Positions 1 through 60,231 of a stretch of 64,000 nucleotides of DNA are shown here, one piece after another (position 1 is the stretch's first letter; every line of letters begins with the position of its first letter). Under the pieces are notes generated by a model. The model worked only from the letters and a program-made list of their open reading frames with translations, was not told the origin of the DNA and did no database searches. Made by a program: the position numbers and the translations under genes. Source of the DNA: Nitrospirota bacterium (GTDB lineage Bacteria; Nitrospirota; Nitrospiria; JACQBW01); assembly GCA_016178585.1 (NCBI GenBank), contig JACOTA010000013.1, positions 3,183-67,182 on the forward strand. Reading direction: 5' to 3'.

Positions 1-1915
1 AAACCAGACTTGAAAGTAAAAAAACGACCAGCGCCATCTGGGCCATATTCTTAAACTTACCGGTTGTTAATTCCTCGTTGATGGCAATCGTCTGGGGAAG
101 GCTCCCTCCGATGCTAACGGTTATACCCGGAGGAAAATTCTCCGCGATAACGGTTTTGGATTTTTTATAAATGGTTTCGGCATTGACAGTGCTGTCATCT
201 TTTAGATAGACCCAAACCACCGTTTGCCGATAATCGTTATCGACAAAGTTATCAAAATCCTGGGGATCTCCCGAAATGGAATAGAGCAAGAGGTATTGGG
301 CGATTAATTCCCGGGTTTCTGGAAGCTTGTTATAAGCCGGATCATCTCCATGCATCGCCTGGTTCATTCGTTTCATCATATCCGCCAGGGACTGGGTTTT
401 ACCGACATAGGGCTGACCGTCCAAAAACTTCTGAAGGGCGGCCATCCCCTGAAGAACACGCGGATCTTTAATGCTATCCTGTTCCCGTCCCTCGATTAAG
501 AAAAAGATAGAATCCGTTCCGCCAAACCTTTTATTGAGAATCACATCGTCTTTTCGGACTTCGCTATTAACGCTATTATATCGTTTAATACTGCTGTCGG
601 CATGAAGCCGTGTAATTCCCATAAACGCAAAGCCAATAAACAGAACCGCGGCCCCTAGAATCCACGCGGATTTTCCGCCAACCAGGTTCTTCGATAATGT
701 TAAAAGCATCCGATCGAGAAAATCGGCCTTCTGCTCGCGTTCAACCTCCCGGCGTTTCGGCGCGGGCAGGAGCGAACGGAGAACCGGAATAAAGGTCATT
801 TCTAAAATCAACGCCCCCAGGACGCCCGAACCCGCAAAAACGCCAAAATGCCGGACCACCGAAATCCCCGCCGTCGTTAACGAATAAAAGGTCACAACGG
901 CGATCAAACCGGCGGTCAGCATGACGGGTCCCACCTTGACCAGCGATTCAATGACAGCCTTTTTGCTGGCGTCCCGCGGAGACATCGTCTCTCTCTCCTG
1001 AAGCTTGTGATATTCTTCATAGTAACGCTTTAAAATCTGAATAGCATGGCCGGCCGCAACCGCCATAATTAAAATGGGCGTCGTGGTATTCATCCCATCC
1101 ATGTGGACGCCCAGCACTCCCATGAAGCCCAAGCCCCAGATCACGCTCAAAATGGCGGTTAGAATGGGCAAAAACATTCCTTGAAAACTTTTGAAGGACC
1201 AATATTGAATCCCCATAATAATTAAAAGGGCGATTCCAAAGTAAATCGGCATTTTAAACATGTGGTATTCAAACCAGGCCAGGCCGACCGGAAGGCCTCC
1301 CATAGAGATATTCACCTGGTCGTCCCGTTCCCTATCCACCACCTTTCTGATCGATTCATAAAGCGCGGCATAACTGGGGTTTTCCTTATTGACTCTGAAA
1401 TCGGCGATGATTGCGGCTGCTTTTCCATCAGGAGAGACCAATGAATTAATATAGATTGGGTTGGAAGCCACCGCCGCTTTGAGACGTTCAATTTCGGCCG
1501 GAGTCTGGGGAATCGTCTCCATCATCTGCCGGACCTCCATTCCCTCCGGAGTTCCCTTAATTTCTTTCACCTTGCGGGCGGCAAAACTGATGATGTTATG
1601 CCGAACCGCCTCCGGAATTTCTTCAATCCCTTGCTGGATGCGCTGAATTTTCGCCAGGACAGCCGGCTGATAAACATCCCCATTTTTCGGAATGATTCCA
1701 ATCACCGTAAAGTTTCTCCCGCCAAAAACATTTTCAAGCTGTTTGGTCGCCTTGACATAGGGATGGGCCTGCGGAGCCCAGATATCCGGATCCATATCGA
1801 TTTTCAAGCTGGTAAGCCTTGATCCCAGAAACAGGGTTACGGCTGTAATCATTAAAATTGTAAACAGGCGATGACGAATGATGAATTCTGTATAGCGGCG
1901 AAATATTTGGGTCAT
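1..1915 (-). CDS. RND/MMPL-family exporter, N-terminal part (gene runs off the window start)
   Basis: Minus-strand reading frame from ATG at 1915 (RC ATGACCCAAATATTTCGCCGC..., AGGAG about 9 nt upstream), open to the window edge by hand translation (MTQIFRRYTEFIIRHRLFTILMITAVTLF...). Hydrophobic N-terminal TM followed by a large loop region typical of RND/MMPL. Sits directly downstream of a TetR gene, a classic regulator-pump pair. Not in the ORF track because the stop lies outside the window. Confidence 0.5.
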   Translation of the reverse strand, partial: MTQIFRRYTEFIIRHRLFTILMITAVTLFLGSRLTSLKIDMDPDIWAPQAHPYVKATKQLENVFGGRNFTVIGIIPKNGDVYQPAVLAKIQRIQQGIEEIPEAVRHNIISFAARKVKEIKGTPEGMEVRQMMETIPQTPAEIERLKAAVASNPIYINSLVSPDGKAAAIIADFRVNKENPSYAALYESIRKVVDRERDDQVNISMGGLPVGLAWFEYHMFKMPIYFGIALLIIMGIQYWSFKSFQGMFLPILTAILSVIWGLGFMGVLGVHMDGMNTTTPILIMAVAAGHAIQILKRYYEEYHKLQERETMSPRDASKKAVIESLVKVGPVMLTAGLIAVVTFYSLTTAGISVVRHFGVFAGSGVLGALILEMTFIPVLRSLLPAPKRREVEREQKADFLDRMLLTLSKNLVGGKSAWILGAAVLFIGFAFMGITRLHADSSIKRYNSVNSEVRKDDVILNKRFGGTDSIFFLIEGREQDSIKDPRVLQGMAALQKFLDGQPYVGKTQSLADMMKRMNQAMHGDDPAYNKLPETRELIAQYLLLYSISGDPQDFDNFVDNDYRQTVVWVYLKDDSTVNAETIYKKSKTVIAENFPPGITVSIGGSLPQTIAINEELTTGKFKNMAQMALVVFLLSSLV

Positions 1916-2006
1916 CACGATCTCTCTCCTTTAGCTATTTTCACCCATCTAATATTGTTATCAGTTTATTGTCACTGATAAAAAAAATCTGTTCTTATCT
2001 GCGCTT

Positions 2007-2645
2007 CTATTTAAGAAAGGATCCGTCAGGATATTTTTTTTCAAATAAACATTTTAGGTAAAGTTTATACTGCAGAATGTTTCTTTCAAAAATTCCGTTA
2101 TCCTTTTTGGCCTTCGCAAGGATGAAAGAGCCCTCTACCAGGGAAATCAAGTGCTCCGCAAGACTCAGAGTGTCGAATGGCGCCTTATGAGCATGAAGGT
2201 CCTTTGCTTGATCCAAATCCCGCTTAAATCTGTTAGCCCATTGATCAAATCGCGCGGCGCATAAAGACCGGATTTCAGCATGGGTCTCGGCAAGTTCCTG
2301 TGTAAAATTTCCGAGAATGCAACTTTTCGGGGCTTCCGGATGTTTTGACAATTGAATTAAAAAATCAAGATATCCGTAAACACGCTGAAGCGGATCGAAT
2401 TCCTGATTGAAAGGTGCCATTTCTATCATTTCGGACATCTTGTTGGAATAAAATTCTAAAACCGCTTTTCCAAGCTCTTCCTTGCTCTCAAAATAATGAA
2501 AAAAGCTTCCCTTGGTAAACCCGGAGGCATCACAAATTTCGTCGACGGTTGTAGCCGGAAATCCCTGCTTCAGCATCAATTGTTTTGCGGCTTCAAGGAT
2601 TTTTTCTTTAGTGGCAGAAATTTCTTTAATGACCTTCATATTCAC
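2007..2645 (-). CDS. TetR/AcrR-family transcriptional regulator
   Basis: 212 aa. N-terminal HTH signature TVDEICDASGFTKGSFFHYFESKEEL. Located upstream of the RND gene. Confidence 0.8.
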   Translation of the reverse strand: MNMKVIKEISATKEKILEAAKQLMLKQGFPATTVDEICDASGFTKGSFFHYFESKEELGKAVLEFYSNKMSEMIEMAPFNQEFDPLQRVYGYLDFLIQLSKHPEAPKSCILGNFTQELAETHAEIRSLCAARFDQWANRFKRDLDQAKDLHAHKAPFDTLSLAEHLISLVEGSFILAKAKKDNGIFERNILQYKLYLKCLFEKKYPDGSFLK

Positions 2646-2728
2646 AAACCTACTAGTTGGTATATTTTTGTTTCATCATATTTTTATCATACCTTCGGAT
2701 TCATTGTCAACTTTTTAAATTTAAGCAC

Positions 2729-3334
2729 CTATTTTGATTGAGAGGTCATTTGTTTTTCAGTCCCTGCCAACAGTCTTTTGATATTTTCGACGTGTTTCAG
2801 GTAGATGATTAAAACGACCAGGACCGCAAAGAAAAGATAATCTTTTTCCCCCAAAACCAGGAAGGTCAAGGGAAGGAGCCCAAATGAAACAAGCCCCCCG
2901 AGTGAGGAATACTTCCAGGTAAAATAGACCCCGTTCCAAATGATGAAGGTAATAATGGCTACCGCGGGGGAAATTCCTAAAAGAACACCGAAGCTGGTGG
3001 CAACCCCTTTTCCCCCTTTAAACCTCAGATAAATTGAAAAAATATGTCCCAGGATAGCAGCAAGGGCTACCGTCGAAATCCAGAAAACGGTGGGCGTCAT
3101 CTGCTTTGCGATTAGGACAGGAAGTGTTCCCTTCAGTGTGTCAAGGGTCAGGGTCATAAACGCTGTTTTTTTATTGGTGGTGCGCATGACGTTGGTGAAG
3201 CCAATTCCACCGCTTCCTCCTTTCCGGGGATCCATCCCGGCAAATATTTTCGATAAGATCAGGCCAAATGGAATACCGCCTAAAAGGCAGGAGATTGTCA
3301 CGATCATTATTCCGGATACAATTGAAGAATCCAA
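2729..3334 (-). CDS. plsY: Glycerol-3-phosphate acyltransferase PlsY
   Basis: 201 aa polytopic membrane protein with the PlsY signature FKGGKGVAT. TTG start (RC of caa at 3332-3334). Confidence 0.85.
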   Translation of the reverse strand: MDSSIVSGIMIVTISCLLGGIPFGLILSKIFAGMDPRKGGSGGIGFTNVMRTTNKKTAFMTLTLDTLKGTLPVLIAKQMTPTVFWISTVALAAILGHIFSIYLRFKGGKGVATSFGVLLGISPAVAIITFIIWNGVYFTWKYSSLGGLVSFGLLPLTFLVLGEKDYLFFAVLVVLIIYLKHVENIKRLLAGTEKQMTSQSK

Positions 3335-3350
3335 ATTTCTAATCCTTATT

Positions 3351-3439
3351 TATATTCAGGGGCCGGTGCGCCCCGCCTTCGGCGGATGCTCCGATGCCCC
3401 CCGAACCCCGCGTTCCGCACCGGCTTAGCCGGTTGCTTC
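3351..3439 (-). repeat. F1 structured intercistronic element, copy 1 (pgsA|plsY)
   Basis: Conserved ends TATTCAGGGGCC ... CCCCGAACCCCGCGTTCCGCACCGGCTTAGCCGGTTGCTTC. Confidence 0.8.
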
Positions 3440-3445
3440 CCTTAC

Positions 3446-3979
3446 CTATTTATAGGCCTGTCTGGCGTAATTGACAAAATACTGAATGCCGGAAATGACT
3501 GCAAGGAAAAGCGAGACCCACATAAAAAAAGTCCCCAGGAGTTGAAAATTTAAAGGGAAAGTTAAATTCCAGAGGAGGAGCGAAATCGCGGTAATTTGAG
3601 CCCCCATTTTATACTTTCCGAGAACATCAGCGGGAATGATAATATCTTCCATCGCGGCAAGGGCTCTAAGCCCGGTCACCGCCATTTCCCTGCCGATTAA
3701 GATGACCACAATCCACGCTTCAACGCGATGAAAATTGACCAGCAGGATTAACGCGGAAATGACCAGAAGTTTGTCTGCGATCGGGTCCATGAGTTTTCCC
3801 CATTTGGTCACTTCTCCTCTTTTCCTGGCAAGATATCCGTCAAGAAAATCTGTCAGGGATGCCAGCAAAAACGTTACGGTTGCAAAAAAAGACCGGATGG
3901 GAGTCGGGTCCAAATAAATAAATATAAAAACGGGAATCATGGCTATTCGGAGAAGCGTCAGAAAATTAGGAAGATTCAT
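3446..3979 (-). CDS. pgsA: CDP-diacylglycerol--glycerol-3-phosphate 3-phosphatidyltransferase
   Basis: CDP-alcohol phosphatidyltransferase motif DFLDGYLAR...GKLMDPIADKLL. The ORF track extends to 4090, but the typical start is MNLPNFLTLLRIA at 3979, which overlaps the upstream gene's stop by 14 nt. Confidence 0.85.
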   Translation of the reverse strand: MNLPNFLTLLRIAMIPVFIFIYLDPTPIRSFFATVTFLLASLTDFLDGYLARKRGEVTKWGKLMDPIADKLLVISALILLVNFHRVEAWIVVILIGREMAVTGLRALAAMEDIIIPADVLGKYKMGAQITAISLLLWNLTFPLNFQLLGTFFMWVSLFLAVISGIQYFVNYARQAYK

Positions 3980-4883
3980 GACTCGCGGATCCGTACCGGG
4001 TTTGCCAACGGTTATGCATCCAGACCCACTGATCAGGATGCCGTTTGATGGTTTCTTCGATAGCCTTCGTAAAATAGGCGGTATTTGCATAAATATTTTC
4101 TTCCAATGTCCCCTGCTGAATCAAAGGAACAGGCCCGGTCAATGAAACCACATGACGATCGCCGGGTTCACGATGGATAAAACCAAGAATCACCGAAGCC
4201 CCGCTTTTCAGGGCTAAAGACGCGGCGCCAGAAGGGGTAAAAGCTTTTCGGTTAAAAAAATCTACAAAAACTCCTTCCGCTTCGATATCCTGGTCGATTA
4301 ACAAACCCAAAATCTGATTGTTTTTAAGCGCCGACAAGATTTTTCTCGCCCCTTTTTCTCCCCCTCGCGTAATCGTTTGCACCCCGTGAAGCGAGCGAAA
4401 TTGATTCATGATTCGATCAAGCCGGGAATCATAAAGGGGCGCCGCAATCACATTCGTCGGATACCCTTTAATCGAAAGGGCAATCCCCATCAGCTCCCAA
4501 TTTCCGGTGTGCCCTGTAACAAAGACAACTCCTTTTCCCTTCGCGAAGGCTTCCCTTAAGCAGGCCTCCCCTTCGAAGGTTACCATTCGATCGATATTCC
4601 GGGAATTGATTTGACTGAACTTTAAAACCTCTATCAGACTCTTTCCGAGATTTTCAAAACTCTTTTTGAGGATTTCATTTTTCTGGCTGTCATTATACCC
4701 GTCACCAAACGCGAGATTAAAATTATTCCAGGCCCTGTCTCGCTCTTTTTTTAATCGCTGGTAAGCAACCCTCCCTAAAAAACCGCCCGTTGCCAAAGCG
4801 ATTTTCCAGGGTATCAGGAGAATGAGAACAGAAACGACTTTCAGCCCTGCAATAATCAGCCATCTGACCACTTTTTGTTTCAT
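3966..4883 (-). CDS. LpxL/HtrB-family lipid A (Kdo2-lipid IVA) acyltransferase
   Basis: 305 aa with an N-terminal TM. HX4D/E acyltransferase motif VTGHTGNWELMG. Lies within the KDO/LPS gene string. Confidence 0.7.
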   Translation of the reverse strand: MKQKVVRWLIIAGLKVVSVLILLIPWKIALATGGFLGRVAYQRLKKERDRAWNNFNLAFGDGYNDSQKNEILKKSFENLGKSLIEVLKFSQINSRNIDRMVTFEGEACLREAFAKGKGVVFVTGHTGNWELMGIALSIKGYPTNVIAAPLYDSRLDRIMNQFRSLHGVQTITRGGEKGARKILSALKNNQILGLLIDQDIEAEGVFVDFFNRKAFTPSGAASLALKSGASVILGFIHREPGDRHVVSLTGPVPLIQQGTLEENIYANTAYFTKAIEETIKRHPDQWVWMHNRWQTRYGSASHESS

Positions 4884-4903
4884 ATATCAATCAGTCTACA
4901 ACA

Positions 4904-5029
4904 GTCCTGACGTTGAGAAGTGGTCAGTTGCCAGGCCGCAGAATCGAGGCAACGCAGGCGTACGTTAAATGTACGTTGAGGAAGCCGAGATTCGAGAACG
5001 CAGCAAATGGCCACTTATCGACGATCAGG
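4904..5029 (+). ncRNA. F3 structured element, copy a (candidate small RNA; overlaps the kdsC stop)
   Basis: About 125 nt imperfect palindrome. Closing stem CCUGACG...CGAUCAGG and internal hairpin CGUAC-7nt-GUACG. Shares about 75% identity with 32759-32886. Confidence 0.45.
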
Positions 5030-5557
5030 CGAGAGAAAGCCAACCGGCTTGAGGCCTTTCTCACCCATCCTCGCCGATAAAATAAAATCAATCGCTTCGC
5101 GAACGCCTCCCAGACCTCCTGCTTTTTTGGTCACCCAGTCGCACTGATCTTTTACTTCATCAATTCCATTGGAAACGGAAAGAGAAAGGCCGACCCGTTT
5201 TATTACCGGCAAATCAATCAGATCGTCGCCAATATAGGCCATTTCATGATCTTTCAAGTGGTGCTTTTTTAAAATTTCTTCGTATTGTTTAATCTTATTT
5301 TCAACGCCCAGATAACATTCCTCGATCCCCAACTCTCTGGCTCTGATTTCAACCGCTTTTGACTTTCTCCCCGAGAGGATTCCGACTTTAATTCCCTGCT
5401 CCAAAAGAAGCCGGATGCCATGGCCGTCATGGATATGAAATACTTTAATCTCTTTTCCCTGATCGTCGTAATAAAGACGGCCGTCGGTCAAGACTCCGTC
5501 GACATCCATGAGGAAAAACTTGATTTGTCCGGCTTTTTCAATCAGTTCCCGTTTCAT
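5015..5557 (-). CDS. kdsC: KDO 8-phosphate phosphatase (HAD family)
   Basis: 180 aa. Motifs FLMDVDGVLTDG and GDDLIDLP. Adjacent to kdsD and kdsA. Confidence 0.85.
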   Translation of the reverse strand: MKRELIEKAGQIKFFLMDVDGVLTDGRLYYDDQGKEIKVFHIHDGHGIRLLLEQGIKVGILSGRKSKAVEIRARELGIEECYLGVENKIKQYEEILKKHHLKDHEMAYIGDDLIDLPVIKRVGLSLSVSNGIDEVKDQCDWVTKKAGGLGGVREAIDFILSARMGEKGLKPVGFLSPDRR

Positions 5558-5568
5558 CGTTTTTCAGC

Positions 5569-6531
5569 TCAGACAACTCCCATTTTCAGAAGGTCGTGTA
5601 AATGAACAACCCCTACCAGCTTTTCATTCTCATCCATGACGGGTAAAACCGTAATGGAATAGGTTTCCATCACCTGAACCGCTTTGGCCGCCAGCTCCTT
5701 TTCCCCGATAAATTTGGGGTTTTTAGTCATGACTTCTTTGGCCCTTTTTTCAAATATTTTTTCTTCCTTTTCCAACAGCCGCCTTAAATCACCATCGGTA
5801 ATGACGCCGGTCAATTTCCCCTGCCGGCCTGTTACCGTTGTCATTCCCATTTTTTTCCGGGTCATTTCAAACAAGGCTTCTTTTAAGGAACTCTCTTCAC
5901 TTACAATCGGAATTTGGGCCGTCTGGTGCATGATATCTTTTACCCGGAGGAGGAGTCTTCTTCCCAAACTTCCGCCGGGGTGGAAAAAGGCAAAGTCTTC
6001 TTCTTTGATTCCTCTTAATTCAAACAGGGCGACGGCCAGCGCGTCTCCCATTGCCAGCGCCGCAGTGGTACTGGCGGTCGGAACAATCCCCATGGCCCCC
6101 GCCTCTTCTTGAACGCTGACGTCTAAAGCGACGTCGCTTTCCCTGGCAAGAGTCGATTTAATATTTCCGGTCATGGAGAGCAAAAATAAACCGAGTCGTT
6201 TGATCGATGGGAGAATTTTAAGGAGCTCTTCGGTTTCCCCGCTGTTTGAAATCGCCAGGATAACATCTCCTTTTGAAATCATCCCGATATCGCCATGAAG
6301 CCCCTCCGCAGGATGAAGAAAAAAAGAAGGCGCGCCGGTACTGGCCAGTGTGGCTGAAATTTTTTTTCCAATAATTCCGGATTTTCCCATTCCGGTCACA
6401 ACGACCCTTCCCTGACATTGGTTCAGCGCCTCAACCGCCTCAACAAAATTCTGATTAACGGAACTTAAAAGACGGGTCAGAGCGTTCGCTTCAGTTTGAA
6501 GGACTTTTTTTCCGGTTTGAATAATGTCCAT
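5569..6531 (-). CDS. kdsD: Arabinose-5-phosphate isomerase (SIS + tandem CBS)
   Basis: 320 aa. SIS motif GRVVVTGMGKSG with a C-terminal CBS pair. Confidence 0.85.
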   Translation of the reverse strand: MDIIQTGKKVLQTEANALTRLLSSVNQNFVEAVEALNQCQGRVVVTGMGKSGIIGKKISATLASTGAPSFFLHPAEGLHGDIGMISKGDVILAISNSGETEELLKILPSIKRLGLFLLSMTGNIKSTLARESDVALDVSVQEEAGAMGIVPTASTTAALAMGDALAVALFELRGIKEEDFAFFHPGGSLGRRLLLRVKDIMHQTAQIPIVSEESSLKEALFEMTRKKMGMTTVTGRQGKLTGVITDGDLRRLLEKEEKIFEKRAKEVMTKNPKFIGEKELAAKAVQVMETYSITVLPVMDENEKLVGVVHLHDLLKMGVV

Positions 6532-6585
6532 AAACCCTTTGTAAAATGGAGTCCGTGGGTTGGCCGAGACCCAGGAATCAACCTG

Positions 6586-9767
<3,182 letters not shown>

Positions 9768-9771
<4 letters not shown>

Positions 9772-10778
9772 AAAGAATGGTTAAGATCATCCAATAAGGT
9801 TTGCTGAGTCACAGTTGCCGTTCCGACAATCCCGACGACAATTCCGGCGGCATGATTTGCCAAAACCGCGGAATCTTTTAAATTGGCTCCCGCCGAAAGA
9901 GCCAGGGATAATACGCTTACAACCGTATCCCCGGCGCCTGTAACATCGAAAACTTTCTTGGCGACAGTCGGAATATGCGTGACCTCCCCGGAGTTTTCAA
10001 AGAGGCTCATCCCATGTTCTCCCCGCGTAATGAGTACCGACTCGCAATCGAGCTTCTTTAAAATGGTCTGACCGGCTTTCATTAACGACGCTTCATCCTC
10101 TATTTCAATCCCGGAACCCAGGGAAGCTTCGAGATGGTTGGGGGTGAGGAGCGTGACACCCCTATAGATTGAAAAATGACTGATTTTCGGGTCGACAATA
10201 ATTTTGATTTTAAGTTCTTTTGAAAAATTAATTGCCCCCCTGATTAAACTTTCAGTGACAACCCCTTTTTCGTAATCGGAGATGACAATCGACTGATATT
10301 GATCAAGATTTTTTTCCAGCCAGGAGAGGAGTTTTTTCTGGCTTTCGGCGGAAATATCTCCCCGTTTTTCGTGATCAAATCTAACCACCTGCTGACTATG
10401 GGCGATGACCCTCGTTTTCCGGGTCGTTGGGCGTCCGGGTTCCTGAATAATGCCCTGTCCGCTGACCTTCATCTCCCTTAAACGGCGGGTAATCCATTCG
10501 CCGGAAGCGTCCTGTCCAATAACCCCTCCGAGATCCGTTTTACCGCCAAGAGAAAAAATATTATGGCAAACGTTGGCCGCCCCGCCCAATAACATGGTTT
10601 CAGAGGTTACATTCACCACGGGAACGGGCGCTTCTGGCGAGATCCGTTTCACGGTTCCCCAGATATAATGGTCCAGCATTAAATCGCCAATCACAAGAAT
10701 CCGCGACTCTGAAAATTTTTTAACGTAAGACCTTAACGGATGTTCAGCGCGTTTTCTTTGTTCATTCCCAGGTTTCAT
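9768..10778 (-). CDS. hldE: D-glycero-beta-D-manno-heptose-7-phosphate kinase (RfaE domain I only, PfkB family)
   Basis: 336 aa. Motif ILVIGDLMLDHYIWG plus the PfkB motif DVTGAGDT. No adenylyltransferase domain is fused. Confidence 0.75.
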
Positions 10779-10799
10779 AAATTGACGCTCCTTTCGGAC

Positions 10800-11408
10800 T
10801 TATTGAATGAACTTTCCGATTCGATTCCAGCGCACCCACTCATCCTTCCCATCCCATGACCAATAAATGATAAACGCTTTTCCTTTTAACTTATTTTCGC
10901 TGACAAATCCCCAAAAACGACTGTCAAGACTTTGATCGCGATTATCTCCCATCATAAAATATTTACCTTCCGGAACGGTGATGGGACCGAAATTGTCCCG
11001 GTCCTGAAGAATGGCTGTATCGGAGTGGATGATGTAAGGTTCTTTCATGGCCTCCCCGTTGACAAACAACTGTTTGTTTTTAATTTCAATCGTGTCCCCG
11101 GGTTCTCCTATTAACCTTTTCACAAAATCTGTTTTTTCATCTCTCGGATATTTAAAGACCACCACATCGCCATGTTTCGGCTGCCAAGTGTGAATTAAAA
11201 TTGTATCTGAAAAAGGGATTTTAACGCCATAAATAAATTTCAGAACAAAAATATGATCCCCAACCTTCAAGGTTGGAATCATCGATCCTGAAGGTATTTT
11301 GAAAGCCTGAATGACAAAGGTCATCACGATCAGAGCCAAAATCAAGGCGGTTAAAATCGCTTCTACATATTCCCTGATCATTGAAGGTTCATTTTTTCTT
11401 TTGGTCAT
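10800..11408 (-). CDS. lepB: Signal peptidase I
   Basis: 202 aa. Motifs SGSMIPTL and GDNRDQSLDSRFWG. Confidence 0.9.
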   Translation of the reverse strand: MTKRKNEPSMIREYVEAILTALILALIVMTFVIQAFKIPSGSMIPTLKVGDHIFVLKFIYGVKIPFSDTILIHTWQPKHGDVVVFKYPRDEKTDFVKRLIGEPGDTIEIKNKQLFVNGEAMKEPYIIHSDTAILQDRDNFGPITVPEGKYFMMGDNRDQSLDSRFWGFVSENKLKGKAFIIYWSWDGKDEWVRWNRIGKFIQ

Positions 11409-11429
11409 TTCATTCCTTAAGCCTTATTT

Positions 11430-11516
11430 TATTCAGGGGCCCGTGCGGTTTCACTCCGTGAAATCCTCCGATGCCCCCGAACCCCGCGTTCCGCACCGAC
11501 TAAGCCGGTTGCTTCA
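11430..11516 (-). repeat. F1 element, copy 2 (lepA|lepB)
   Basis: Same conserved ends. Confidence 0.8.
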
Positions 11517-11529
11517 CTTCATTTCTTAC

Positions 11530-13335
11530 TTAATCTTTTATTTTAAGTACTGCCAGAAAAGCCTCCTGAGGGATTTCAACCCTGCCGATCTGTTTCATTC
11601 TTTTCTTGCCTTCTTTTTGCTTTTCCCACAATTTTCGTTTTCTTGAAATATCTCCGCCATAACATTTTGCAGTCACGTTTTTTTTCATGGCGGCAATTGT
11701 TTCACGGGCAAGAATCTTGCCGCCGATGGTCGCCTGAACAGCGATCTCAAACATTTGGCGGGGAATCAGTTCTTTCATTTTTTCGGCAATCTGGCGGCCG
11801 CGTTGAGCCGCTTTTGTTCTGTGGGTGATAAAGGAAAGGGCGTCTACGGTTTCGCCGTTCAACAAAATATCGATTTTAACCAGATCCGATTCCTTATAAC
11901 CGATCAATTCATAATCAAAGGATGCATATCCTTTGGTCAGCGATTTTAATTTATCATGAAAATCCAGAATCACTTCGTTTAGAGGCATTTCGTAGGACAT
12001 CAAAATGCGTTTTCGGTCCAGATATTTGTAGTCTTTTTGAATGCCTCTTTTTTCCTGGCAGAGGTTTATTAACGAACCCATGTATTCTTCCGGGGTAATG
12101 ATCGAGGCAAGAATGTTAGGCTCTTCATACGTTTTGACTTTTTGCGGATCAGGGAGTTTGGCCGGATTATCGATGAGAAGAAGGTCTCCCTTTATTGTTG
12201 TAATCCGGTAAACAACGGTCGGAGCCGTACTGATTAAACTTAAGTTATATTCCCGTTCCAGACGCTCCTGGATAATTTCCATATGAAGGAGCCCCAAAAA
12301 ACCGCACCGAAAGCCAAAACCAAGAGCAAGAGAGGTCTCAGGTTCATAACGAAAGGAAGAATCATTTAAGCTGAGTTTTTCTAACGCGTCCCTTAAATCT
12401 TCATATTCGGCCGTATCCTGACAATAAAGTCCGCAAAAAACCATCGGTTTAACATCCCGATAACCCGGAATCTGGACTTCTGCCGGCCGGCTTGCGGAGG
12501 TGACTGTATCTCCGACCTTGGTATCTCCGACTTTTTTTATCGCCGCCGTAAAACACCCGACCTCTCCGACGCTCAGTTCGGAAACCGGGGTCCGGGCGGG
12601 CGTGAAAATACCCAGCGAGATCACTTCAAACTCCTTCCGGTGGGACATAAAAAGAATTCGGTCTCCAACTTTCAGGGTGCCTTCGACAATCTTGACCAAA
12701 ACCACGGCCCCTTCGTAATTGTCAAACCATGAATCGAATACAAGGGCTTTTAAAGGGCCCTCCGGATCACCTGAAGGGGGAGGAACCCTGTGAACGACGG
12801 CTTCAAGAATCTCTTTTATTCCAATCCCCTCTTTGGCGCTTGCCAGGACCGCCTCGTTCGCTTCAAGGCTTAAAATATCCTCAATTTGCTCTTTTGCTTT
12901 TACAATATCCGCGCTCGGCAGGTCGATTTTATTGATCACCGGAATAATCTTGAGCCTGTTGTCCATCGCCAGATTGGCATTCGCGATCGTTTGGGCTTCA
13001 ACGCCCTGCGTGGCGTCGACGACAAGAAGAGCGCCTTCACAGGCCGCAAGGCTTCTGGAAACTTCATAGGTAAAATCTACATGGCCGGGGGTGTCGATTA
13101 AATTCAGAATATATTTTTCGTTGGAATCTGATTGGTAAACCAGCCTGACCGCATGAGCTTTAATCGTTATACCCCGTTCCCGCTCAAGATCCATGTCATC
13201 AAGAAACTGCTCCCGTTGCTCTCTTTTGGTCAAAGCACCGGTATATTCCAGAAGACGATCTGCCAGGGTTGACTTGCCATGGTCAATATGGGCGATAATG
13301 GAAAAATTTCGGATGTGGTTTTGGATTTCATTCAT
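11530..13335 (-). CDS. lepA: Elongation factor 4 (LepA)
   Basis: [17 protein letters not shown] GTPase domain plus the LepA C-terminal domain. Start placed at the second Met (MNEIQNH...) because a consensus promoter -10 sits 2 nt from the first ATG at 13344. Confidence 0.9.
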
Positions 13336-13346
13336 AAAACGCATGA

Positions 13347-13375
13347 ATTATATTCGTAATTGCAAGGCTTGTCAA
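13347..13375 (-). promoter_or_regulatory. Consensus sigma70 promoter (TTGACA-17-TATAAT) abutting the lepA start
   Basis: Minus strand: TTGACA at 13375-13370, 17 nt spacer, TATAAT at 13352-13347. This implies a transcription start only a few nt before ATG 13335. Confidence 0.5.
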
Positions 13376-13492
13376 AATGATTATTGCTGGAGGGGTATTC
13401 CAGGCCGATGGCCATGGGGAAGCACCTTACTACTTGCCTGACCGGAAAATCGTCAAACTCTTCAGCCAAGCATTCAGATGCGAATGATAGAT

Positions 13493-13780
13493 TCAGGTTT
13501 CGGTATAAAAATTCTCGGTTTGCTTTTCAGCGGAAGGATTGCTGATTTTTTGCACATAGTGCCTGGCCCAGCTCAAAAAAATAGAAGCGCTGTCTTTCAT
13601 AGACTCAGACCCCTCAATCATCGGCCCTAGCTGTTCATCGCTGAATCCTTTTACGCGGAGCTCGTCGACTTTATGGTCATAAACTGATGTGAAATCCTGC
13701 AACGCTTTCAGCACGTTGGTTAATGACTTTTCGATTTCAGGATCCATTTCAATCATATATTTTACTCCGCATGTGGCCAT
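13493..13780 (-). CDS. Hypothetical protein (95 aa) downstream of OFOR-1 delta
   Basis: ORF with acidic, non-repetitive composition. No motif recognised. Confidence 0.4.
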   Translation of the reverse strand: MATCGVKYMIEMDPEIEKSLTNVLKALQDFTSVYDHKVDELRVKGFSDEQLGPMIEGSESMKDSASIFLSWARHYVQKISNPSAEKQTENFYTET

Positions 13781-13806
13781 TCCCTTAAGGAATCCCTTTT
13801 ATAAGG

Positions 13807-14019
13807 TTATCGCATGACCATGGTAATCGCCATGTGTTTTGCATTATCACAAACGACCACGCAGAGCTCACACCCTTTGCATCGATTTTCGACAACATAG
13901 GCTTTCTTTTTGTTAGGGTCGAGTTTAATCGTATCGGCTTCCGGGCAATAAAGAATACAGAGCCGGCACCCCTTGTTGGCAATACATTTATCGTCATCAA
14001 CCTGTGCAACAGCGTACAT
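13807..14019 (-). CDS. 2-oxoacid:ferredoxin oxidoreductase delta subunit (2x[4Fe-4S] ferredoxin), operon 1
   Basis: 70 aa carrying two CxxCxxCxxxCP-type clusters. Confidence 0.8.
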   Translation of the reverse strand: MYAVAQVDDDKCIANKGCRLCILYCPEADTIKLDPNKKKAYVVENRCKGCELCVVVCDNAKHMAITMVMR

Positions 14020-14046
14020 TCAGAAATTCTCCTTTTTCTTCGAAAA

Positions 14047-14727
14047 TTAAACCAACATGGCTGATTGAGACTCCGCCCAGGCGGAACTTATTTCATACCC
14101 TTTCACAATTGTTTCGAGGTTTTTCTGGAGAAGCTGTTCTTTTTTAGCGAATTTTTTCTTAATGGCTTCGTCCAACGTCGCAGTTCCGCCCGAAGCGACG
14201 TATTTTTTTCCAAACCGGTCGGCAAGCGCCTTTTCCATCGATTCCATCTTGACGATTTTTGTGGCTCCCACCAGGGCGCCTAACATGGCCATATTGGTGG
14301 CCAGTTCGGTTCCTGCGATATCCACGGCGATCTGCGTCGCGTCTATGTATAAAAGCTTTGCTTCCAACTCTCCAAGCCGGGCGGTATCTTCCTCACTGAG
14401 CAAAGGGTGATCGGTATTAATAATGACCAGCCCGCCCCGTTTCAGGCCAGAATAAAACGGCATGGTGTAACATTTTCCCTGAGTGTAGACCTGAGGGTGG
14501 TATATCATAATAATGTCGGGATAGACAATTTCGCCTCTGTCATAAATTTTTTGGTCAGCAATTCTGACATAGCTTTCCGCCGGGGCCATCCGTTTTTCAG
14601 CTCCAAAAAAGGGATTTGAAATCGCATTCCTTCCCTCTTTGTAAACGGCTGTGGCTAAAACATGCGCGGAAGTGACCGCCCCCTGTCCTCCTAACCCTGA
14701 AATTCGAACATTGATTCTTTTTCTCAT
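14047..14727 (-). CDS. 2-oxoacid:ferredoxin oxidoreductase gamma subunit, operon 1
   Basis: 226 aa. Paralogous to 33473-34174 (shared motifs GGQG, TELATNMAMLGA). Confidence 0.8.
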   Translation of the reverse strand: MRKRINVRISGLGGQGAVTSAHVLATAVYKEGRNAISNPFFGAEKRMAPAESYVRIADQKIYDRGEIVYPDIIMIYHPQVYTQGKCYTMPFYSGLKRGGLVIINTDHPLLSEEDTARLGELEAKLLYIDATQIAVDIAGTELATNMAMLGALVGATKIVKMESMEKALADRFGKKYVASGGTATLDEAIKKKFAKKEQLLQKNLETIVKGYEISSAWAESQSAMLV

Positions 14728-14729
14728 CT

Positions 14730-15644
14730 TTATTTCACTCCTGCCGGTACGGCCGTTCCAATTTTTGCGGCGGCAGCCGCTAATTTTTTCTTGGCATCCA
14801 GTTCGGCCAAAAACGCTTTGGCTTCGTCAGTAATAAATTCTCTAAATGCGAAACGGTCAGCGGGCCCTTCAGAATCTCTCATCTCCTGAAGACCTTCCAT
14901 GCTCTGCTTTCCGATTTCAAGAATGCAGGGGGTGTAAATCTGCACGTAAGTCGGACCGATGGTTCTCGCGATTAAAATCGCGTTTTTTAGAACCCTTTCG
15001 ACCAGATTCGGCTTGCTGACGGTTAAAATGGCGACATAGGCACAGCCCGATTCCCGCGCAATTTCCGGCATACGGACTTTGTTGAATTTTTTCCCCTGAG
15101 GCGCCATTTTCATGACAAACCCTTTCTGGGTCAACCCGCTTTCCTGCCCGCCGGTATTTGCATAAAGTTCATTGTCAAAACAGATGGTTGTGAATTTCTC
15201 CTGGCGGAACCACGATTGAAGGGTCATGTCCAAACCGATATCGACCGTCGCACCATCGCCCGCGAGAACAACCACATCTTTTTCTTTTTCAGGAAATCTG
15301 ACTTTAAGCGCCCTTTTTAAACCTGAGGCAACCGCGTTTTGATTTCCGAAGAGAGAATGAATATTATGAACCGCGACATGGGGAAATACGAGACTGGTAC
15401 ACCCTGTCGACCCGACCATTACGGTATCTTCAGGATTCGGGAGCGAGGCCAAAACATACCGAAAGGCAATTGACTCCGGGCAGCCCGCACAGAGGGAATG
15501 TTCCTCAATCAGTTCTTTTGCACTGCCGATATCTTTCCATCCGCGGTTTTCTTTTCCATAGGTTGCGTCGGCAACAAGCTCTCTATATTCAACCGGCATA
15601 ATATCTTCTAAATCTTTCGAAATCTTGATTTTATCTTTACCCAT
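14730..15644 (-). CDS. 2-oxoacid:ferredoxin oxidoreductase beta subunit (TPP-binding), operon 1
   Basis: Motif GDGATVDIG. Start reassigned to the internal MGKDKIKISKDL (15644) so that it no longer overlaps alpha by 56 nt. N-terminus parallels that of beta-2. Confidence 0.8.
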   Translation of the reverse strand: MGKDKIKISKDLEDIMPVEYRELVADATYGKENRGWKDIGSAKELIEEHSLCAGCPESIAFRYVLASLPNPEDTVMVGSTGCTSLVFPHVAVHNIHSLFGNQNAVASGLKRALKVRFPEKEKDVVVLAGDGATVDIGLDMTLQSWFRQEKFTTICFDNELYANTGGQESGLTQKGFVMKMAPQGKKFNKVRMPEIARESGCAYVAILTVSKPNLVERVLKNAILIARTIGPTYVQIYTPCILEIGKQSMEGLQEMRDSEGPADRFAFREFITDEAKAFLAELDAKKKLAAAAAKIGTAVPAGVK

Positions 15645-17237: not shown

Positions 17238-18647
17238 ATGACTTTAAATAATACAAGGATTTCGGTAAAAAAATGGAAGTCCAGTTTGGTCTTATTTTCC
17301 GCTCTATTTTGTTTGATTTCCGGCTTTCCTCTTTTAGCAAAGACCGCCGGTCTGGAGGATGCCATTAAATTTCTGGACCAAACCCAAAATGTTTTTATTG
17401 ATATCGCGGCAAAAGCTAAACCGGCGGTGGTGAATATTTCTCCGGCTCAGGCGCTCTCCCATGCCGGAAGACAGGATGAGGCGCCGGCGGAAAGGAGAAG
17501 ACCGGAAGTCCCCCAGGGATCGGGTTCCGGAGTCATTATTGATAAAAAAGGACTCATTATCACCAACCAGCATGTCGTGGGAGACGCGAAAGAGGTTGAA
17601 GTCCGTCTGTCGGATAAACGAAAATTTACCGGAAAGGTTATTGGAAGAGACAGCGATACCGATGTGGCTGTGGTGAAAATTGAGGCGTCTGATTTACCGA
17701 CCCTTGCCGTCGGCGATTCGTCGAAAGTTAAAGTCGGGCAATGGGCAATTGCGGTGGGAAATCCTTTCGGGCTTGAAGGAACCGTGACGCTGGGGGTTAT
17801 CAGCGCCACAGGCCGGGAGAGCGTTAATTTGTCCCGCTATGAGGATTTTATTCAAACCGACGCCTCGATCAACCCGGGCAACAGCGGGGGACCTCTTTTA
17901 AACTTAAAGGGTGAAATCATCGGCATCAACACGGCGATCATTAATTTTGCTCAGGGAATAGGATTTGCCATACCCTCGAACATGGTTCAGGAAATTGTCA
18001 CCCAACTGGTTTCGACAGGGAAAGTGACCCGCGGATGGCTCGGAATCGGCATTCAGGAAGTCAGCACGGATTTAGCCGAAAAGTTCCACATTAAGGAAGG
18101 GGAAGGCATCCTGGTCAGCGAAGTTTTTGAAGGAGACCCCGCCGCCCGCGCAGGAATTCAGCCCGGTGATATTATTACAAAAATAAACGGTCATGACATC
18201 ACCTCCACCAGCACCCTCTCCCGGCTCATTGCAAGCCTGCCACCGGGTAAAAAAACAGATATGGTCATTTTGCGCGATGGAAAACCTAAAACGATCTCGA
18301 TCACGCTGGGTGAAAGAAAAGACGAACAGAAGGTTGCCAGCGCTCAAAAAGAAACCGGCAATCTTCTCGGAATTACCGTGACTGAAATCAATCCTGATCT
18401 GAAGGAGAAATATAAATTAAAAATTGAAAAAGGAGTTTTAATTTCAAAACTCGATTCTGAAGGGCGTTATGATACAGATGCGTTGAAAGAAGGCGACGTC
18501 ATTAAGAAAATGAGGGATGATAAAATAGAAACCATCAACGACTTTAACGAGGCGGTTAAAAAGATCAAGGAAAACGAATCCGTCCTGATCTATGTTAATA
18601 GAGAAAACCGGTCGTTCTTCATCGTCTTAAAACCGAAGGAAAAGTGA
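17238..18647 (+). CDS. HtrA/DegP-family periplasmic serine protease with two PDZ domains
   Basis: 469 aa with a signal peptide. Active-site motifs TNQHVV, DVAVVKI and GNSGGPL. GGAGG RBS. Confidence 0.85.
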   Translation: MTLNNTRISVKKWKSSLVLFSALFCLISGFPLLAKTAGLEDAIKFLDQTQNVFIDIAAKAKPAVVNISPAQALSHAGRQDEAPAERRRPEVPQGSGSGVIIDKKGLIITNQHVVGDAKEVEVRLSDKRKFTGKVIGRDSDTDVAVVKIEASDLPTLAVGDSSKVKVGQWAIAVGNPFGLEGTVTLGVISATGRESVNLSRYEDFIQTDASINPGNSGGPLLNLKGEIIGINTAIINFAQGIGFAIPSNMVQEIVTQLVSTGKVTRGWLGIGIQEVSTDLAEKFHIKEGEGILVSEVFEGDPAARAGIQPGDIITKINGHDITSTSTLSRLIASLPPGKKTDMVILRDGKPKTISITLGERKDEQKVASAQKETGNLLGITVTEINPDLKEKYKLKIEKGVLISKLDSEGRYDTDALKEGDVIKKMRDDKIETINDFNEAVKKIKENESVLIYVNRENRSFFIVLKPKEK

Positions 18648-20534: not shown

Positions 20535-20642
20535 TATTCAGGGGCCTGTGCCACAAAGCTTGCTCGCGAGCGTTCCCGCAGCGAAGCTATGTTTTCATGC
20601 CCCCGAACCCCGCGTTCCGCAACGGCAAAGCCGGTTGCTTCA
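20535..20642 (-). repeat. F1 element, copy 3 (HDAC-like|VOC)
   Basis: Same conserved ends with a longer variable hairpin. Confidence 0.8.
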
Positions 20643-20648
20643 GCACTC

Positions 20649-24528: not shown

Positions 24529-24705
24529 TTACGTACTCCATTTTTTTCCGCTGTTTATCAGATATCCCGTCCTTTTAAAAATCACCTTTTCTGCGAAAAG
24601 GCAGGCAAATTATCTTTTTCGTTAACAGGGTCCTTCTTAAACATCATGATTTTAATAAATGGTATTCTTTTTTGTTAAGCGACGGTTTATGACATGTATC
24701 AAGCC

Positions 24706-24842
24706 CAAGAACAGAGTTAGAAAGCTGTCATTGCGAACAAAGTGAAGCAATCTCAAGACTTTACGATAAGATTGCCACGCACCCTTCGGTGCTCGCAATG
24801 ACATGATTAATAAGTGGGTGCGAAGTCTATCGCTGGTCTTGG
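24706..24842 (+). repeat. 137-bp element, copy B
   Basis: Identical to RC of copy A. Nested hairpins (GTCATTGCGA...TCGCAATGAC; GCAATCT...AGATTGC; cUUCGg). Confidence 0.9.
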
Positions 24843-29592: not shown

Positions 29593-29651
29593 ACCGCCAC
29601 CTGGTAAAAGAGGGAGATATTAAAAACACTCTAACCTATTGAAAAATAAAG

Positions 29652-29725
29652 TGCGCCTGGAGGGAATTGAACCCCCGACCTACAGATTCGGAATCTGCCA
29701 CTCTATCCAACTGAGCTACAGGCGC
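29652..29725 (-). tRNA. tRNA-Arg (anticodon CCG)
   Basis: Manual cloverleaf: 7-bp acceptor GCGCCTG/CAGGCGC, D arm, anticodon stem GCAGA/TCTGT with loop TTCCGAA, T loop TTCAATT, discriminator A. No encoded CCA. Confidence 0.85.
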
Positions 29726-29843
29726 ATTCAAGAAAAGTCATTTTAACAAAACTAATCCAGAAACTCTAATACCTTCAAAAACAATAAATCAAAACCTTAT
29801 CGACATTGCGGAACCATGTCGAGAGCAAGCTTGGTGACTCGCA

Positions 29844-29862
29844 CCAACTGAGCTACAGGCGC
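29844..29862 (-). other. tRNA-Arg 5' fragment (positions 1-19) within a diverged tandem copy of the tRNA upstream region
   Basis: CCAACTGAGCTACAGGCGC is identical to 29707-29725. About 78 bp of upstream flank is also duplicated at roughly 80% identity. Confidence 0.7.
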
Positions 29863-29958
29863 ATTATAGAAAAGTCTATTTTAACAGAACGAATCGAAAA
29901 ACTCTAATGCCCTTAAAAACAATAAATAAAAACCTTTTTAAAAAGTATTATAAAGGAT

Positions 29959-31286: not shown

Positions 31287-31396
31287 TGAAGCATCTGGCT
31301 CTGCCAGTGACGGACTTGGGAATGGTCGTAGTGAGACCGAGCGTAACGCGGGGTTCGGGGGCATTGAGAGTGAAGTGCTCGAAGGCCTCCTGAATA
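31287..31396 (+). repeat. F1 element, copy 4 (inverted on the chromosome; precedes the + strand radical SAM gene)
   Basis: Reverse complement of the consensus. Contains one 32-bp CGGTCT..GTC sub-module. Confidence 0.8.
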
Positions 31397-32320: not shown

Positions 32321-32755
32321 ATGAGCGCCTTTGACAAAGAAAACCAACACAAATTTATCAGAATTGCAAAACAGTTAAAGAACGGTATTCCTCCGGACGA
32401 AGGCGAAGAAGGGATGATTGCCGATATCCTCTCTCAACATCCGGAATTTGAACAAGTTTGGGAACTTGGAGAAATGTCCGCGACACCGCAGGAGATCAAT
32501 GGCCAAATCGTTAATCCTTTTGTTCATACCGCCCTCCACCTGGCCATGGAAAAGCAAATTGAAAAGAATGACCCCATGGAGGTCGTCGAAGCCATTAATA
32601 ACCTGTTAAAAGGGGGAAAGGAAAGGCATGAAATCATTCATCAGATCGGAGGGGTTTACGCAAACATTTATTTTGCGACCTTTAGAAGGGGTCAGATGTT
32701 TGAAGAGATCAGTTATATCGAAATCGTCAGAGAAATGACCCGCGGCGAACAATAG
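32321..32755 (+). CDS. Hypothetical protein (144 aa)
   Basis: ORF with RBS GAGG. No motif recognised with confidence. Confidence 0.4.
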   Translation: MSAFDKENQHKFIRIAKQLKNGIPPDEGEEGMIADILSQHPEFEQVWELGEMSATPQEINGQIVNPFVHTALHLAMEKQIEKNDPMEVVEAINNLLKGGKERHEIIHQIGGVYANIYFATFRRGQMFEEISYIEIVREMTRGEQ

Positions 32756-32758
32756 AAC

Positions 32759-32886
32759 GTCCTGAACGTGGAGATGAGGTCAGTTGCAAGGCCGCAGCTT
32801 TGAGGGCGACGCAGGCGTACTTTGTCGGTACGTCGAGGAGACCGAAAGGCGAGAACGCAGCAAATGGCCTCGTATCAGCGTTCAGG
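32759..32886 (+). ncRNA. F3 structured element, copy b (fills a convergent intergenic gap)
   Basis: Same architecture, with compensatory changes in the closing stem. Confidence 0.45.
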
Positions 32887-32888
32887 GG

Positions 32889-33083
32889 TTATTCAGATTG
32901 ACCGGGCCGTAGGGGCTCATGGCACCGGTCACAAAACTCATATTTTGCCGGGTTTTCATAGTGACATTCCGGGCAAAATAAATGTTTTTCCCATTGATAA
33001 GATGGAAACTCGGCCAAACACTTTTCACAAAAACTCGATTGATTCAGATTCGGAGTGTCGCATTTTGGACAATGAAGAATCAT
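32889..33083 (-). CDS. Double zinc-ribbon protein
   Basis: 64 aa with four CxxC pairs (CPKC, CEKC, CPEC, CDRC). Confidence 0.55.
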   Translation of the reverse strand: MILHCPKCDTPNLNQSSFCEKCLAEFPSYQWEKHLFCPECHYENPAKYEFCDRCHEPLRPGQSE

Positions 33084-41513: not shown

Positions 41514-41868
41514 ATTCCTTATAATCCATTAAGTTATCCAATTCAGATGGATCAGACATTTCGATCACCGCAATCCAGCCCAATCCGTAGGGGTCTTCAT
41601 TAATCAGTTCAGGCCTTTCTTTTAATTCCTGATTAACCTCAATTATTTTTCCGCTGATAGGCGCAAGAACAGGAGAGGTCGTTTTTGTCGATTCAATTTC
41701 CATAATTTCTTCTTCAGCGCTTAATTCGATGTTGGTTTCGGGGGTTTCGATAAATACAATATCTCCGAGCGATTCCTGGGCAAAATCGGTGATGCCGATC
41801 GTCGCGCGCTTTCCCTCTTTTTTGACCCACTCATGATCTGTCGAAAATTTTAAATCTTCAGGCCGCAT
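41473..41868 (-). CDS. gcvH: Glycine cleavage system H protein
   Basis: 131 aa lipoyl domain (ESTKTTSPV). GGAGG RBS. Confidence 0.8.
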   Translation of the reverse strand: MRPEDLKFSTDHEWVKKEGKRATIGITDFAQESLGDIVFIETPETNIELSAEEEIMEIESTKTTSPVLAPISGKIIEVNQELKERPELINEDPYGLGWIAVIEMSDPSELDNLMDYKEYEEFIREEQQEED

Positions 41869-41883
41869 TAAATCCTCCTATTT

Positions 41884-41962
41884 TATATTCAGGGGTCTTC
41901 GAGAAAAACACTCTCAATGCCCCCGAACCCCGCGTTACGCACTGGCAAAGCCAGTTGCTTCA
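41884..41962 (-). repeat. F1 element, copy 5 (FAD-oxidoreductase|gcvH)
   Basis: Same conserved ends. Confidence 0.8.
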
Positions 41963-41982
41963 CTTATTAGAATTGAATATGT

Positions 41983-47421: not shown

Positions 47422-47924
47422 TACTGAGTTAATTCCTCCAGGCGGGAAAGGATGCAGGCCGCGTGTGCCGCGATTCCCTCTCCCCTCCCGATGGCATCTA
47501 ATTTTTCCGCGGTCTTTGCCTTTATATTGACTTTTTTTTCTTCGATATGAAGCGTTTTGGCAAGCGTAAATTTCATTTGGGGCATAAAAGGAGCCAACTT
47601 CGGTTCCTGCGCGATAACAATGGTATCCAGATTTTCAATGCCCATTTCATTTTTCACCAAAAGCTCTTGTATTTCTTCAAGAATGATCAGACTCGACATT
47701 CCTTTATATTTCGGATTCGTATCAGGATAATAATGCCCGATATCGCCCAGACCGAGCCCCCCCAGCAGAGCATCGGCTACCGCATGGATTAAGACATCTC
47801 CATCGGAATGACCCAGGAGTCCTTTTTCGAATGGAATCGATATTCCGCCTATGACCAATGGCCTTCCCGGAACAAGCCGGTGTATGTCGTACCCAATTCC
47901 GATTTTCATTATTCTCCCGGCCAA
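47421..47924 (-). CDS. ispF: 2-C-methyl-D-erythritol 2,4-cyclodiphosphate synthase
   Basis: Motifs GYDIHRL and HSDGDV. Confidence 0.9.
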   Translation of the reverse strand: MAGRIMKIGIGYDIHRLVPGRPLVIGGISIPFEKGLLGHSDGDVLIHAVADALLGGLGLGDIGHYYPDTNPKYKGMSSLIILEEIQELLVKNEMGIENLDTIVIAQEPKLAPFMPQMKFTLAKTLHIEEKKVNIKAKTAEKLDAIGRGEGIAAHAACILSRLEELTQ

Positions 47925-47985
47925 TAATCAGGGGCCATGGGCTGCGTTCTTGCCTCTGCGGCTTGCGACCCGCTGACCCCCCTCC

Positions 47986-53535: not shown

Positions 53536-53541
53536 CCATTC

Positions 53542-53616
53542 TATTCAGGGGCCTTCGCAAACGACGCTCAATGCCCCCGAACCCCGCGTTCCGCACTGGC
53601 AAAGCCAGTTGCTTCA
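53542..53616 (-). repeat. F1 element, copy 6a
   Basis: First unit of a tandem pair. Confidence 0.8.
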
Positions 53617-53623
53617 TCCATTC

Positions 53624-60209: not shown

Positions 60210-60231
60210 TCCTAAAATTCCTTTTCGATTA

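Follow-up and report, generated by a model that had tools for sequence, protein, structure and literature searches.

The ERIC (or IRU) elements of enterobacteria are imperfect palindromes of about 127 nt, and Neisseria has elements of its own, known as Correia or NEMIS. IS200/IS605 elements undergo strand-specific, single-strand transposition by Y1 HUH transposases, and they have two short subterminal hairpins and a fixed target of 4–5 nt. Single-strand transposition of the HUH/Y1 type leaves no target duplication. REP sequences are units of 20–40 bp whose palindrome has a GTAG or CGTC tag, left unpaired, at one of its ends, and most of them are reported to lie downstream of coding regions, where the neighbouring genes are unidirectional or convergent (PMC3733652). 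REPINs are REP doublets mobilised by RAYTs (PMC3116915, PMC3337134), and compensatory changes are reported to be common in their single-stranded DNA hairpins (PMC3116915). The element described here adds a new family to the known "bacterial interspersed palindromic repeats"; its nearest counterparts in size and behaviour are ERIC, Correia-type elements, and REPINs.

The stretch of DNA that was analysed, the window, is 64,000 nt long. Positions 1–15557 are 99.94% identical to contig JACPZL010000111.1 of the metagenome-assembled genome GCA_016195515.1, and the homologues of the proteins flanking the element are named Nitrospiria or Nitrospirota by their sources. The window contains two full copies of the hairpin element, both on the + strand, as follows. 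Copy A extends from 4904 to 5029 and scores 127 bits (E = 9e-31) with R1, a covariance model built from four copies; copy B extends from 32759 to 32886 and scores 131 bits (E = 8e-32). The nhmmer E values for the two window copies are 1e-40 and 3e-42. The copies have a 19-mer and a 20-mer in common, which none of 100 shuffles reaches, and they are 79% identical over 82 nt ungapped and about 80% identical across the whole length. A sequence-only reading of this DNA had proposed the two-copy family, which these searches bear out, with an identity of about 75%; the similarity holds, and the measured figure is higher.

The same reading had described a long hairpin, and RNA folding of both copies agrees. 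Each forms a single long imperfect hairpin tipped by CGTAC-7nt-GTACG. For the + strand as RNA, the minimum free energies of copies A and B are −56.5 and −57.1 kcal/mol (z = −7.5 and −4.9), against −44.7 and −39.1 kcal/mol for the − strand. The termini CCTGA(A)CG...CG(T)TCAGG are common to both window copies. The gene positions given in that reading are also correct. Copy A is antisense to the kdsD-kdsC-acyltransferase-pgsA operon and contains the last four codons and the stop (5015–5017) of kdsC, a − strand gene. Copy B fills the gap between a DUF1841 gene (32321–32755, +) and a convergent gene for a 64-residue zinc-ribbon (DZR) protein (32889–33083, −), starting 3 nt past the DUF1841 stop (32755) and ending 2 nt short of the stop of the 64-residue gene (32889). 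A probable short family member lies on the − strand at 47918–47996, in the ispD/ispF junction and sense to the operon. R1, which was built without that sequence, gives it 20.1 bits (E = 0.013–0.017), and nhmmer gives E = 0.012. The outer stem and both large-loop motifs are retained, with AGG in place of the inner 56 nt. Since the fold of 47918–47996 is no better than that of shuffles (z = −0.5), its family membership is tentative.

Scans of genome and metagenome collections without the window's genome for the 18-mer AGAACGCAGCAAATGGCC returned 10 and 19 loci, which are unrelated chance matches except for contigs of the source organism; further copies were taken from loci fetched through homologues of the flanking proteins. 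In the GCA_016194305.1 lineage, R1 identifies four members over about 41 kb, all at sites other than those occupied in the window. Three belong to locus L034. The copy at 12297–12420 (L034a, +) lies between plsY and a sigma-70 gene, in the sense orientation, and the copy at 17270–17392 (−) lies between an LppC-like gene and accC, in the antisense orientation. The copy at 9198–9384 (L034c, −; 34.6 bits), between kdsD and kdsC, is about 65 nt longer than the other copies, with the extra sequence seemingly inserted on the right side of the tip; a nested element or a variant subfamily could explain it. Next to this copy, the annotated kdsC start looks too short, and a TTG at about 9399 restores the conserved N-terminus. 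The fourth member, at 14466–14591 of locus L035 (+), between a gene for a 94-residue protein and panB, is antisense and diverged (19.9 bits). Four other relatives, covered over about 75 kb in total, yielded no members, and the broader model R2 did not change this.

The copies collected number 6–7. All seven lie in junctions of unidirectional or convergent genes, 2–22 nt from start or stop codons, three of them sense and four antisense to the flanking transcription, and no shared flank sequence is seen among the 6–7 copies. Searches of described sequences were negative. With Rfam 15, the whole window at gathering scores gives one tRNA only, and segment 4860–5070 at E values up to 10 gives chance-level matches. 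A blastn comparison with plasmids, phages, and 5,426 complete E. coli genomes gives no match. A two-part core pattern has one chance match in viral sequences, in coding-like DNA with no hairpin.

The unit is 122–128 nt long and folds into one imperfect hairpin of about 55 bp, with three stems and two internal loops; in copy A, about 20 extra nt adjoin the ~125-nt unit on one side. The outer stem has about 20 pairs, and across the four full copies its sequence is variable while its pairing is kept. The middle stem has about 8 pairs and is broken by a GA facing GA mismatch. The large internal loop has AAGGCCGCAG on the left and CGAGAACGCAGC on the right in the four full copies, and the second loop has GACG(C/G)AG on the left and (U/C)GA(G/A/C)GA(A/G) on the right. 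The tip, GGCGUAC-loop-GUACGU(U/C), is conserved. The conserved motifs of copy A, all read on the + strand, are arranged as follows. The unpaired motif of the left side of the large loop, CAGGCCGCAG at 4932–4941, contains the first CGCAG; its AGGCCGCAG is invariant in the four aligned full copies, and L034c also has AAGGCCGCAG. The segment 4951–4977 contains the second CGCAG, followed by the apical hairpin GGCGTAC-loop-GTACGTT, with two conserved G.U pairs at its base (model pairs 54-75 and 55-74, G.U in 7 of 8 cells). The unpaired motif of the right side of the large loop, CGAGAACGCAGC at 4993–5004, contains the third CGCAG, which is direct, not inverted, relative to the first.

The highest conservation is in unpaired internal-loop bases, including the three direct CGCAG motifs, an unusual arrangement for a palindromic repeat; the variability of the outer stem is likewise unusual. 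Between genomes, the termini are the least conserved part of the element and the interior loops the most, the loop motifs being kept between genomes whose proteins are about 69% identical. Since the CGCAG motifs are direct repeats rather than reverse complements, the element is not made of two inverted copies of one short repeat.

Variation among the copies preserves pairing. The compensatory changes first noticed between the two window copies, an A-U to U.G change and a U-A/A-U swap, are present in the closing stem, and the additional copies extend the pattern. In a MAFFT alignment of four copies (A3), standard pairs make up 94% of the cells of the 35 pairs, and 15 of the 35 have changes on both sides, a result matched by none of 500 shuffles; slid controls are 29–40% paired. 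It should be kept in mind that covariation is also common in the single-stranded DNA hairpins of REPINs (PMC3116915), and covariation is therefore no specific argument for RNA over DNA.

The variation is, in addition, biased by strand. The observation that the U.G pairs of the closing stem are valid on the + strand only turns out to be general: on the + (model) strand of the four copies, G.U cells outnumber A.C cells by 22 to 2, or by 13 to 2 when counted by column, the G.U tally including the conserved GG/UU step at the tip base. With RNA parameters, the model strand folds better in all four copies; with DNA parameters, it is clearly better only in the two window copies, a result that leans slightly towards a constraint at the RNA level. 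Copies with the model strand in the local mRNA and copies with the opposite strand in it show the same G.U bias. The bias is thus independent of local transcription, that is, inherited by each copy and not an adaptation to the transcription of its site. The constraint is then most likely on the form that is propagated. The GC skew is negative throughout and tracks gene orientation, and with 2–3 copies it is uninformative on strand preference.

The junction of kdsC and the acyltransferase gene, site A, can be compared in filled and empty states. Seven relatives have an ATGA overlap of the kdsC stop with the acyltransferase start, where the window has a block of 150 nt. They are two strains with a 98% identical acyltransferase (L041 and L042) and relatives at 82% (L032), 72% (L045), and 69% (L046–L049). 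The block (4884–5033, +), absent from the near-identical strains L041 and L042 (98%) and from L032, consists of a 20-nt A/T-rich segment (4884–4903), the hairpin, and CGAG. On the + strand, the empty site reads GTTTCAT, then CGTCGA, then AGAAAGCC; in the filled window, GTTTCAT is followed by the 150 nt of 4884–5033 and then by AGAAAGCC. That is, 6 nt of the empty site (CGTCGA, + strand) are replaced by the block. The 22-nt sequence 4884–4905 is single in the window. No clean target duplication is seen at this one informative site, where the comparators are 98% identical and not isogenic, so that a duplication of 1–2 nt could escape. A target duplication or microhomology was considered for the empty-site hexamer TCGACG, which resembles both hairpin arms (TCGTCG and TCAACG), and no consistent model emerged. 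Judged from these alignments, copy A is a recent insertion.

The block changes the end of KdsC from GFLRR in the empty state to GFLSPDRR in the window, each followed by the stop. The acyltransferase start codon follows the end of the hairpin by 22 nt and has no obvious Shine-Dalgarno sequence; homologues of this acyltransferase are named Kdo2-lipid IV(A) lauroyltransferase-like by JGI. Two further observations concern this junction. In L033 (9916–10000) and L034 (9929–10000), the kdsC-acyltransferase spacer has neither the ATGA overlap nor the element. It is a G+C-rich spacer of 72–85 nt, GAGGG...GAAGGCCCC AAATA, which indicates that the same junction was hit by something else in other lineages. 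Separately, acyltransferase codons 3–6 (AAAAGTGGTCAG, − strand; window 4864–4875) could pair over 10–11 bp with an arm of the element (4916–4927), and in the operon mRNA this pairing would be an alternative to the element's hairpin, near the start codon. The codon 3–6 match is already present in the empty-site strains. Similarity between element and flank was also considered as a sign of guided targeting; a single match of 10 nt turned up, at copy A, with a p value of ~0.017 that is uncorrected for the 24 tests, and it is probably due to chance.

Site B, the position of copy B, is found in several states. In L035 (GCA_016194305.1), where the DUF1841 protein is 68% identical, the site is empty, with a gap of 8 nt between the convergent genes. 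In L044 (83%), the last ~32 nt of the element are left, with the same right junction, GGG followed by TTATTCA. In L040 (97%), the element is at site B (2463–2513) and the contig breaks off within it, a common fate of assemblies at repeats. The L040 element has a 25-nt A/T-rich leader, and its left arm is nearer to copy A than to copy B, which suggests a replacement, a conversion between copies, or a second insertion at site B. On the evidence of these alignments, copy B is older than copy A and is decaying by deletion.

The element inserts into gene junctions, including a 4-nt ATGA overlap. It is probably a mobile palindromic repeat, non-autonomous and lineage-specific, that belongs to uncultured Nitrospiria and behaves like ERIC, Correia, REPIN, and MITE elements. 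The features that argue for mobility are the polymorphism between 98% strains, the decayed remnant, the non-orthologous copies, the patchy distribution, the presence of both orientations, the tight fit to gene junctions, and the assembly break.

The sequence-only reading had interpreted the repeat as a gene for a small RNA made from the plus strand and, at copy A, antisense to the kdsC/acyltransferase junction. Its structure, covariation, and strand bias stand; the RNA gene and its antisense role are not supported. If the family consisted of genes for trans-acting small RNAs read from the + (model) strand, this would account for a stable hairpin with covariation, for the wobble bias of the model strand, clearer with RNA than with DNA energy parameters, and for unpaired loop motifs conserved between genomes of ~69% protein identity; the conserved unpaired loops also fit a protein-binding RNA. 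Nevertheless, strains with a 98% identical acyltransferase lack the element at the junction over which copy A would act, the copy at site B is truncated in the 83% relative, and in another genome the copies occupy unrelated junctions in both orientations. Simple scans of both window copies find no sigma-70-like promoter, no intrinsic terminator, and no T-run after the stem, with the proviso that Nitrospirota promoters may differ. The upstream flanks share nothing and leave 2–22 nt to the neighbouring coding sequences, there is no match to an Rfam family, and the copies are multiple at unrelated loci, all of which makes a small-RNA gene quite improbable. The same hairpin could instead be selected by the host as a cis-acting mRNA structure, that is, as an intercistronic stabiliser, a processing site, or a terminator, as proposed for REP and ERIC. 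Every copy is in a transcribed operon junction or between convergent genes, a location resembling the placement reported for REPs (PMC3733652), and both strands of the window copies fold strongly (−39 to −57 kcal/mol). Yet the better-folding strand is not the mRNA strand in four of seven copies, no T-run follows the stem, and the orthologous junctions work without the element in close strains and relatives. At site A, moreover, the element destroys the ancestral ATGA coupling rather than adding a control point to an existing spacer. We rank this cis-acting role last, as a very doubtful one.

A mobile origin leaves the means of mobility to be considered. For a classical MITE, moved by a DDE transposase through terminal inverted repeats with target duplication, the element has a suitable size, no coding capacity, and insertion polymorphism, and its termini are common to the two window copies. 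However, these termini differ in the other genome, and the interior loops are the part most conserved between genomes; no clean target duplication is found at site A against the 98%, non-isogenic strains; no longer parent element with these ends occurs in the 225 kb searched; and strand-biased wobble pairs have no role in double-strand recognition. We regard a classical MITE as decidedly unlikely. The conserved interior admits another reading, an undescribed strand-specific hairpin mobile element of which the loops, with their three direct CGCAG motifs, and not the termini, are recognised by an enzyme or an RNA-binding protein, with a folded single-stranded DNA or an RNA intermediate; or else a structured RNA that is mobile and has its own function. 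We hold this reading to be unlikely. Integron attC sites, a bridge-RNA-like system, a retron, and 6S RNA were also considered and dropped, there being no adjacent recombinase or reverse transcriptase, with core housekeeping genes as flanks and constant loops set against differing insertion sites.

As a mobile palindromic repeat, the element can be compared point by point with the described families. It is like ERIC/IRU and Correia/NEMIS in its length of ~125 nt, in being an imperfect palindrome over its whole length, and in its transcribed intergenic sites, in either orientation; like ERIC and Correia elements, which are regarded as non-autonomous, it is present or absent between related genomes. 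Unlike ERIC, to which it has no sequence similarity (blastn, 5,426 complete E. coli genomes), and unlike Correia elements, it shows no TA or other target duplication, and its conservation is highest in unpaired direct repeats, not at the ends. With REPINs (PMC3116915, PMC3337134) it shares a long hairpin in which compensatory changes are frequent, intergenic copies that are dispersed and vary in number within the lineage, a plausible duplication-free single-strand route, and a RAYT-class gene in the genome. In contrast with REPINs, AAGGCCGCAG and CGAGAACGCAGC share CGCAG directly, not as reverse complements, the variable part is the outer stem, there is no GTAG/CGTC tag, and the RAYT-class gene is not flanked by the element. 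The element resembles REPs in its position between unidirectional or convergent genes (7 of 7 copies) and differs from them in the size of the unit, 122–128 nt, and in having no tag common to either end of the aligned copies. A likeness to IS200/IS605 and their miniatures is proposed in the strand-specific folded DNA substrate, the lack of classical terminal inverted repeats, and the lack of target duplication; the differences are a single 125-nt hairpin and the absence of a common flanking sequence in the 6–7 copies.

Since the loops are conserved, the termini vary, the wobble pairs favour one strand, and no clean target duplication is seen, we infer that the folded single model strand is the form needed for propagation. 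A mobilising enzyme would be supplied in trans and would recognise the conserved loops, and single-strand transposition of the HUH/Y1 type would provide a known precedent. For the host, the element would be mainly a passenger, with read-through mRNAs acquiring a strong hairpin in either orientation. At site A, the translational coupling of kdsC and the acyltransferase gene would be broken.

A gene of the REP-associated tyrosine transposase class lies at 18244–19038 of L011, about 2.7 kb beyond window position 1 in the same organism, and scores 84.1 bits with NCBIfam NF047646 (cut-off 80). It belongs to a very large family of ~283-residue proteins that are about 70% identical to each other. Most homologues are on contigs of ~1–1.4 kb, which suggests a multi-copy insertion sequence. 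RAYT genes between long inverted repeats are a known arrangement (PMC3733652), and a 78% homologue (L050 2368–3301) is bounded by 28-nt inverted repeats, AAAGGGTCAGGTCTACTTATTTGACATT, that are unrelated to the element; the motif is also found 5′ of the L011 gene. No model match was found beside the 78% homologue or beside the L011 gene, the 3′ flank of which is cut by the contig end. With its own 28-nt repeats and no adjoining element, this gene is for now rejected as the mobiliser. No Y1 paralogue was found in the window or in the relatives' loci.

The window has other repeats. A separate and more abundant family, ...TTATATTCAGGGGCC..., with ATGCCCCCGAACCCCGCGTT and a CACTGGCAAAGCCAGTTG hairpin about 50 nt later, has 8–9 window copies, at 3326–3443, 11412–11519, 20591–20645, 31345–31364 (−), 41868–41965, 53515–53701, and 60214–60362. 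In relatives, it occurs at ~12230–12285 of L034, 7659–7678 of L035, and 5263–5282 of L046. The copy directly upstream of L034a indicates that different repeat families pile up in the same spacers. A 32-nt unit, CTCGGTCTAACTACGACCATTCCAAAGTCCGT, is found three times in tandem at 53676–53771 and as inverted singles at 31309–31340 and 61170–61201. Its complement has GTAG beside a small GGTC...GACC palindrome, and the unit and the ATGCCCCCGAACCCCGCG repeat are fused. In appearance this unit is a GTAG-type REP, which as a partner for the RAYT-class gene would be more canonical than the ~125-nt element. A 139-nt direct repeat, 99% identical, is at 24704–24842 and 60622–60760, 36 kb apart. About 137 nt from a tRNA-Arg(CCG) gene (29651–29725, −), there is a direct repeat of the tRNA 5′ part and its upstream sequence (29700–29798 versus 29837–29936, 84–86% identical). 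No second tRNA is predicted at 29651–29936, and the repeat at 29837–29936 may be a tRNA integration scar or a decayed tRNA duplicate.

Among uncultured Nitrospiria of groundwater, the element constitutes a repeat family not described before. Metagenome assemblies break at it, and its variation among strains that are 98% identical makes it a possible strain marker. At site A, it offers a natural experiment in which coupled lipopolysaccharide/lipid genes have been split and a hairpin of about −45 kcal/mol placed before the downstream gene. The family would matter more if its strand-biased folding and conserved loops do mark a new mechanism of mobilisation or a functional RNA.
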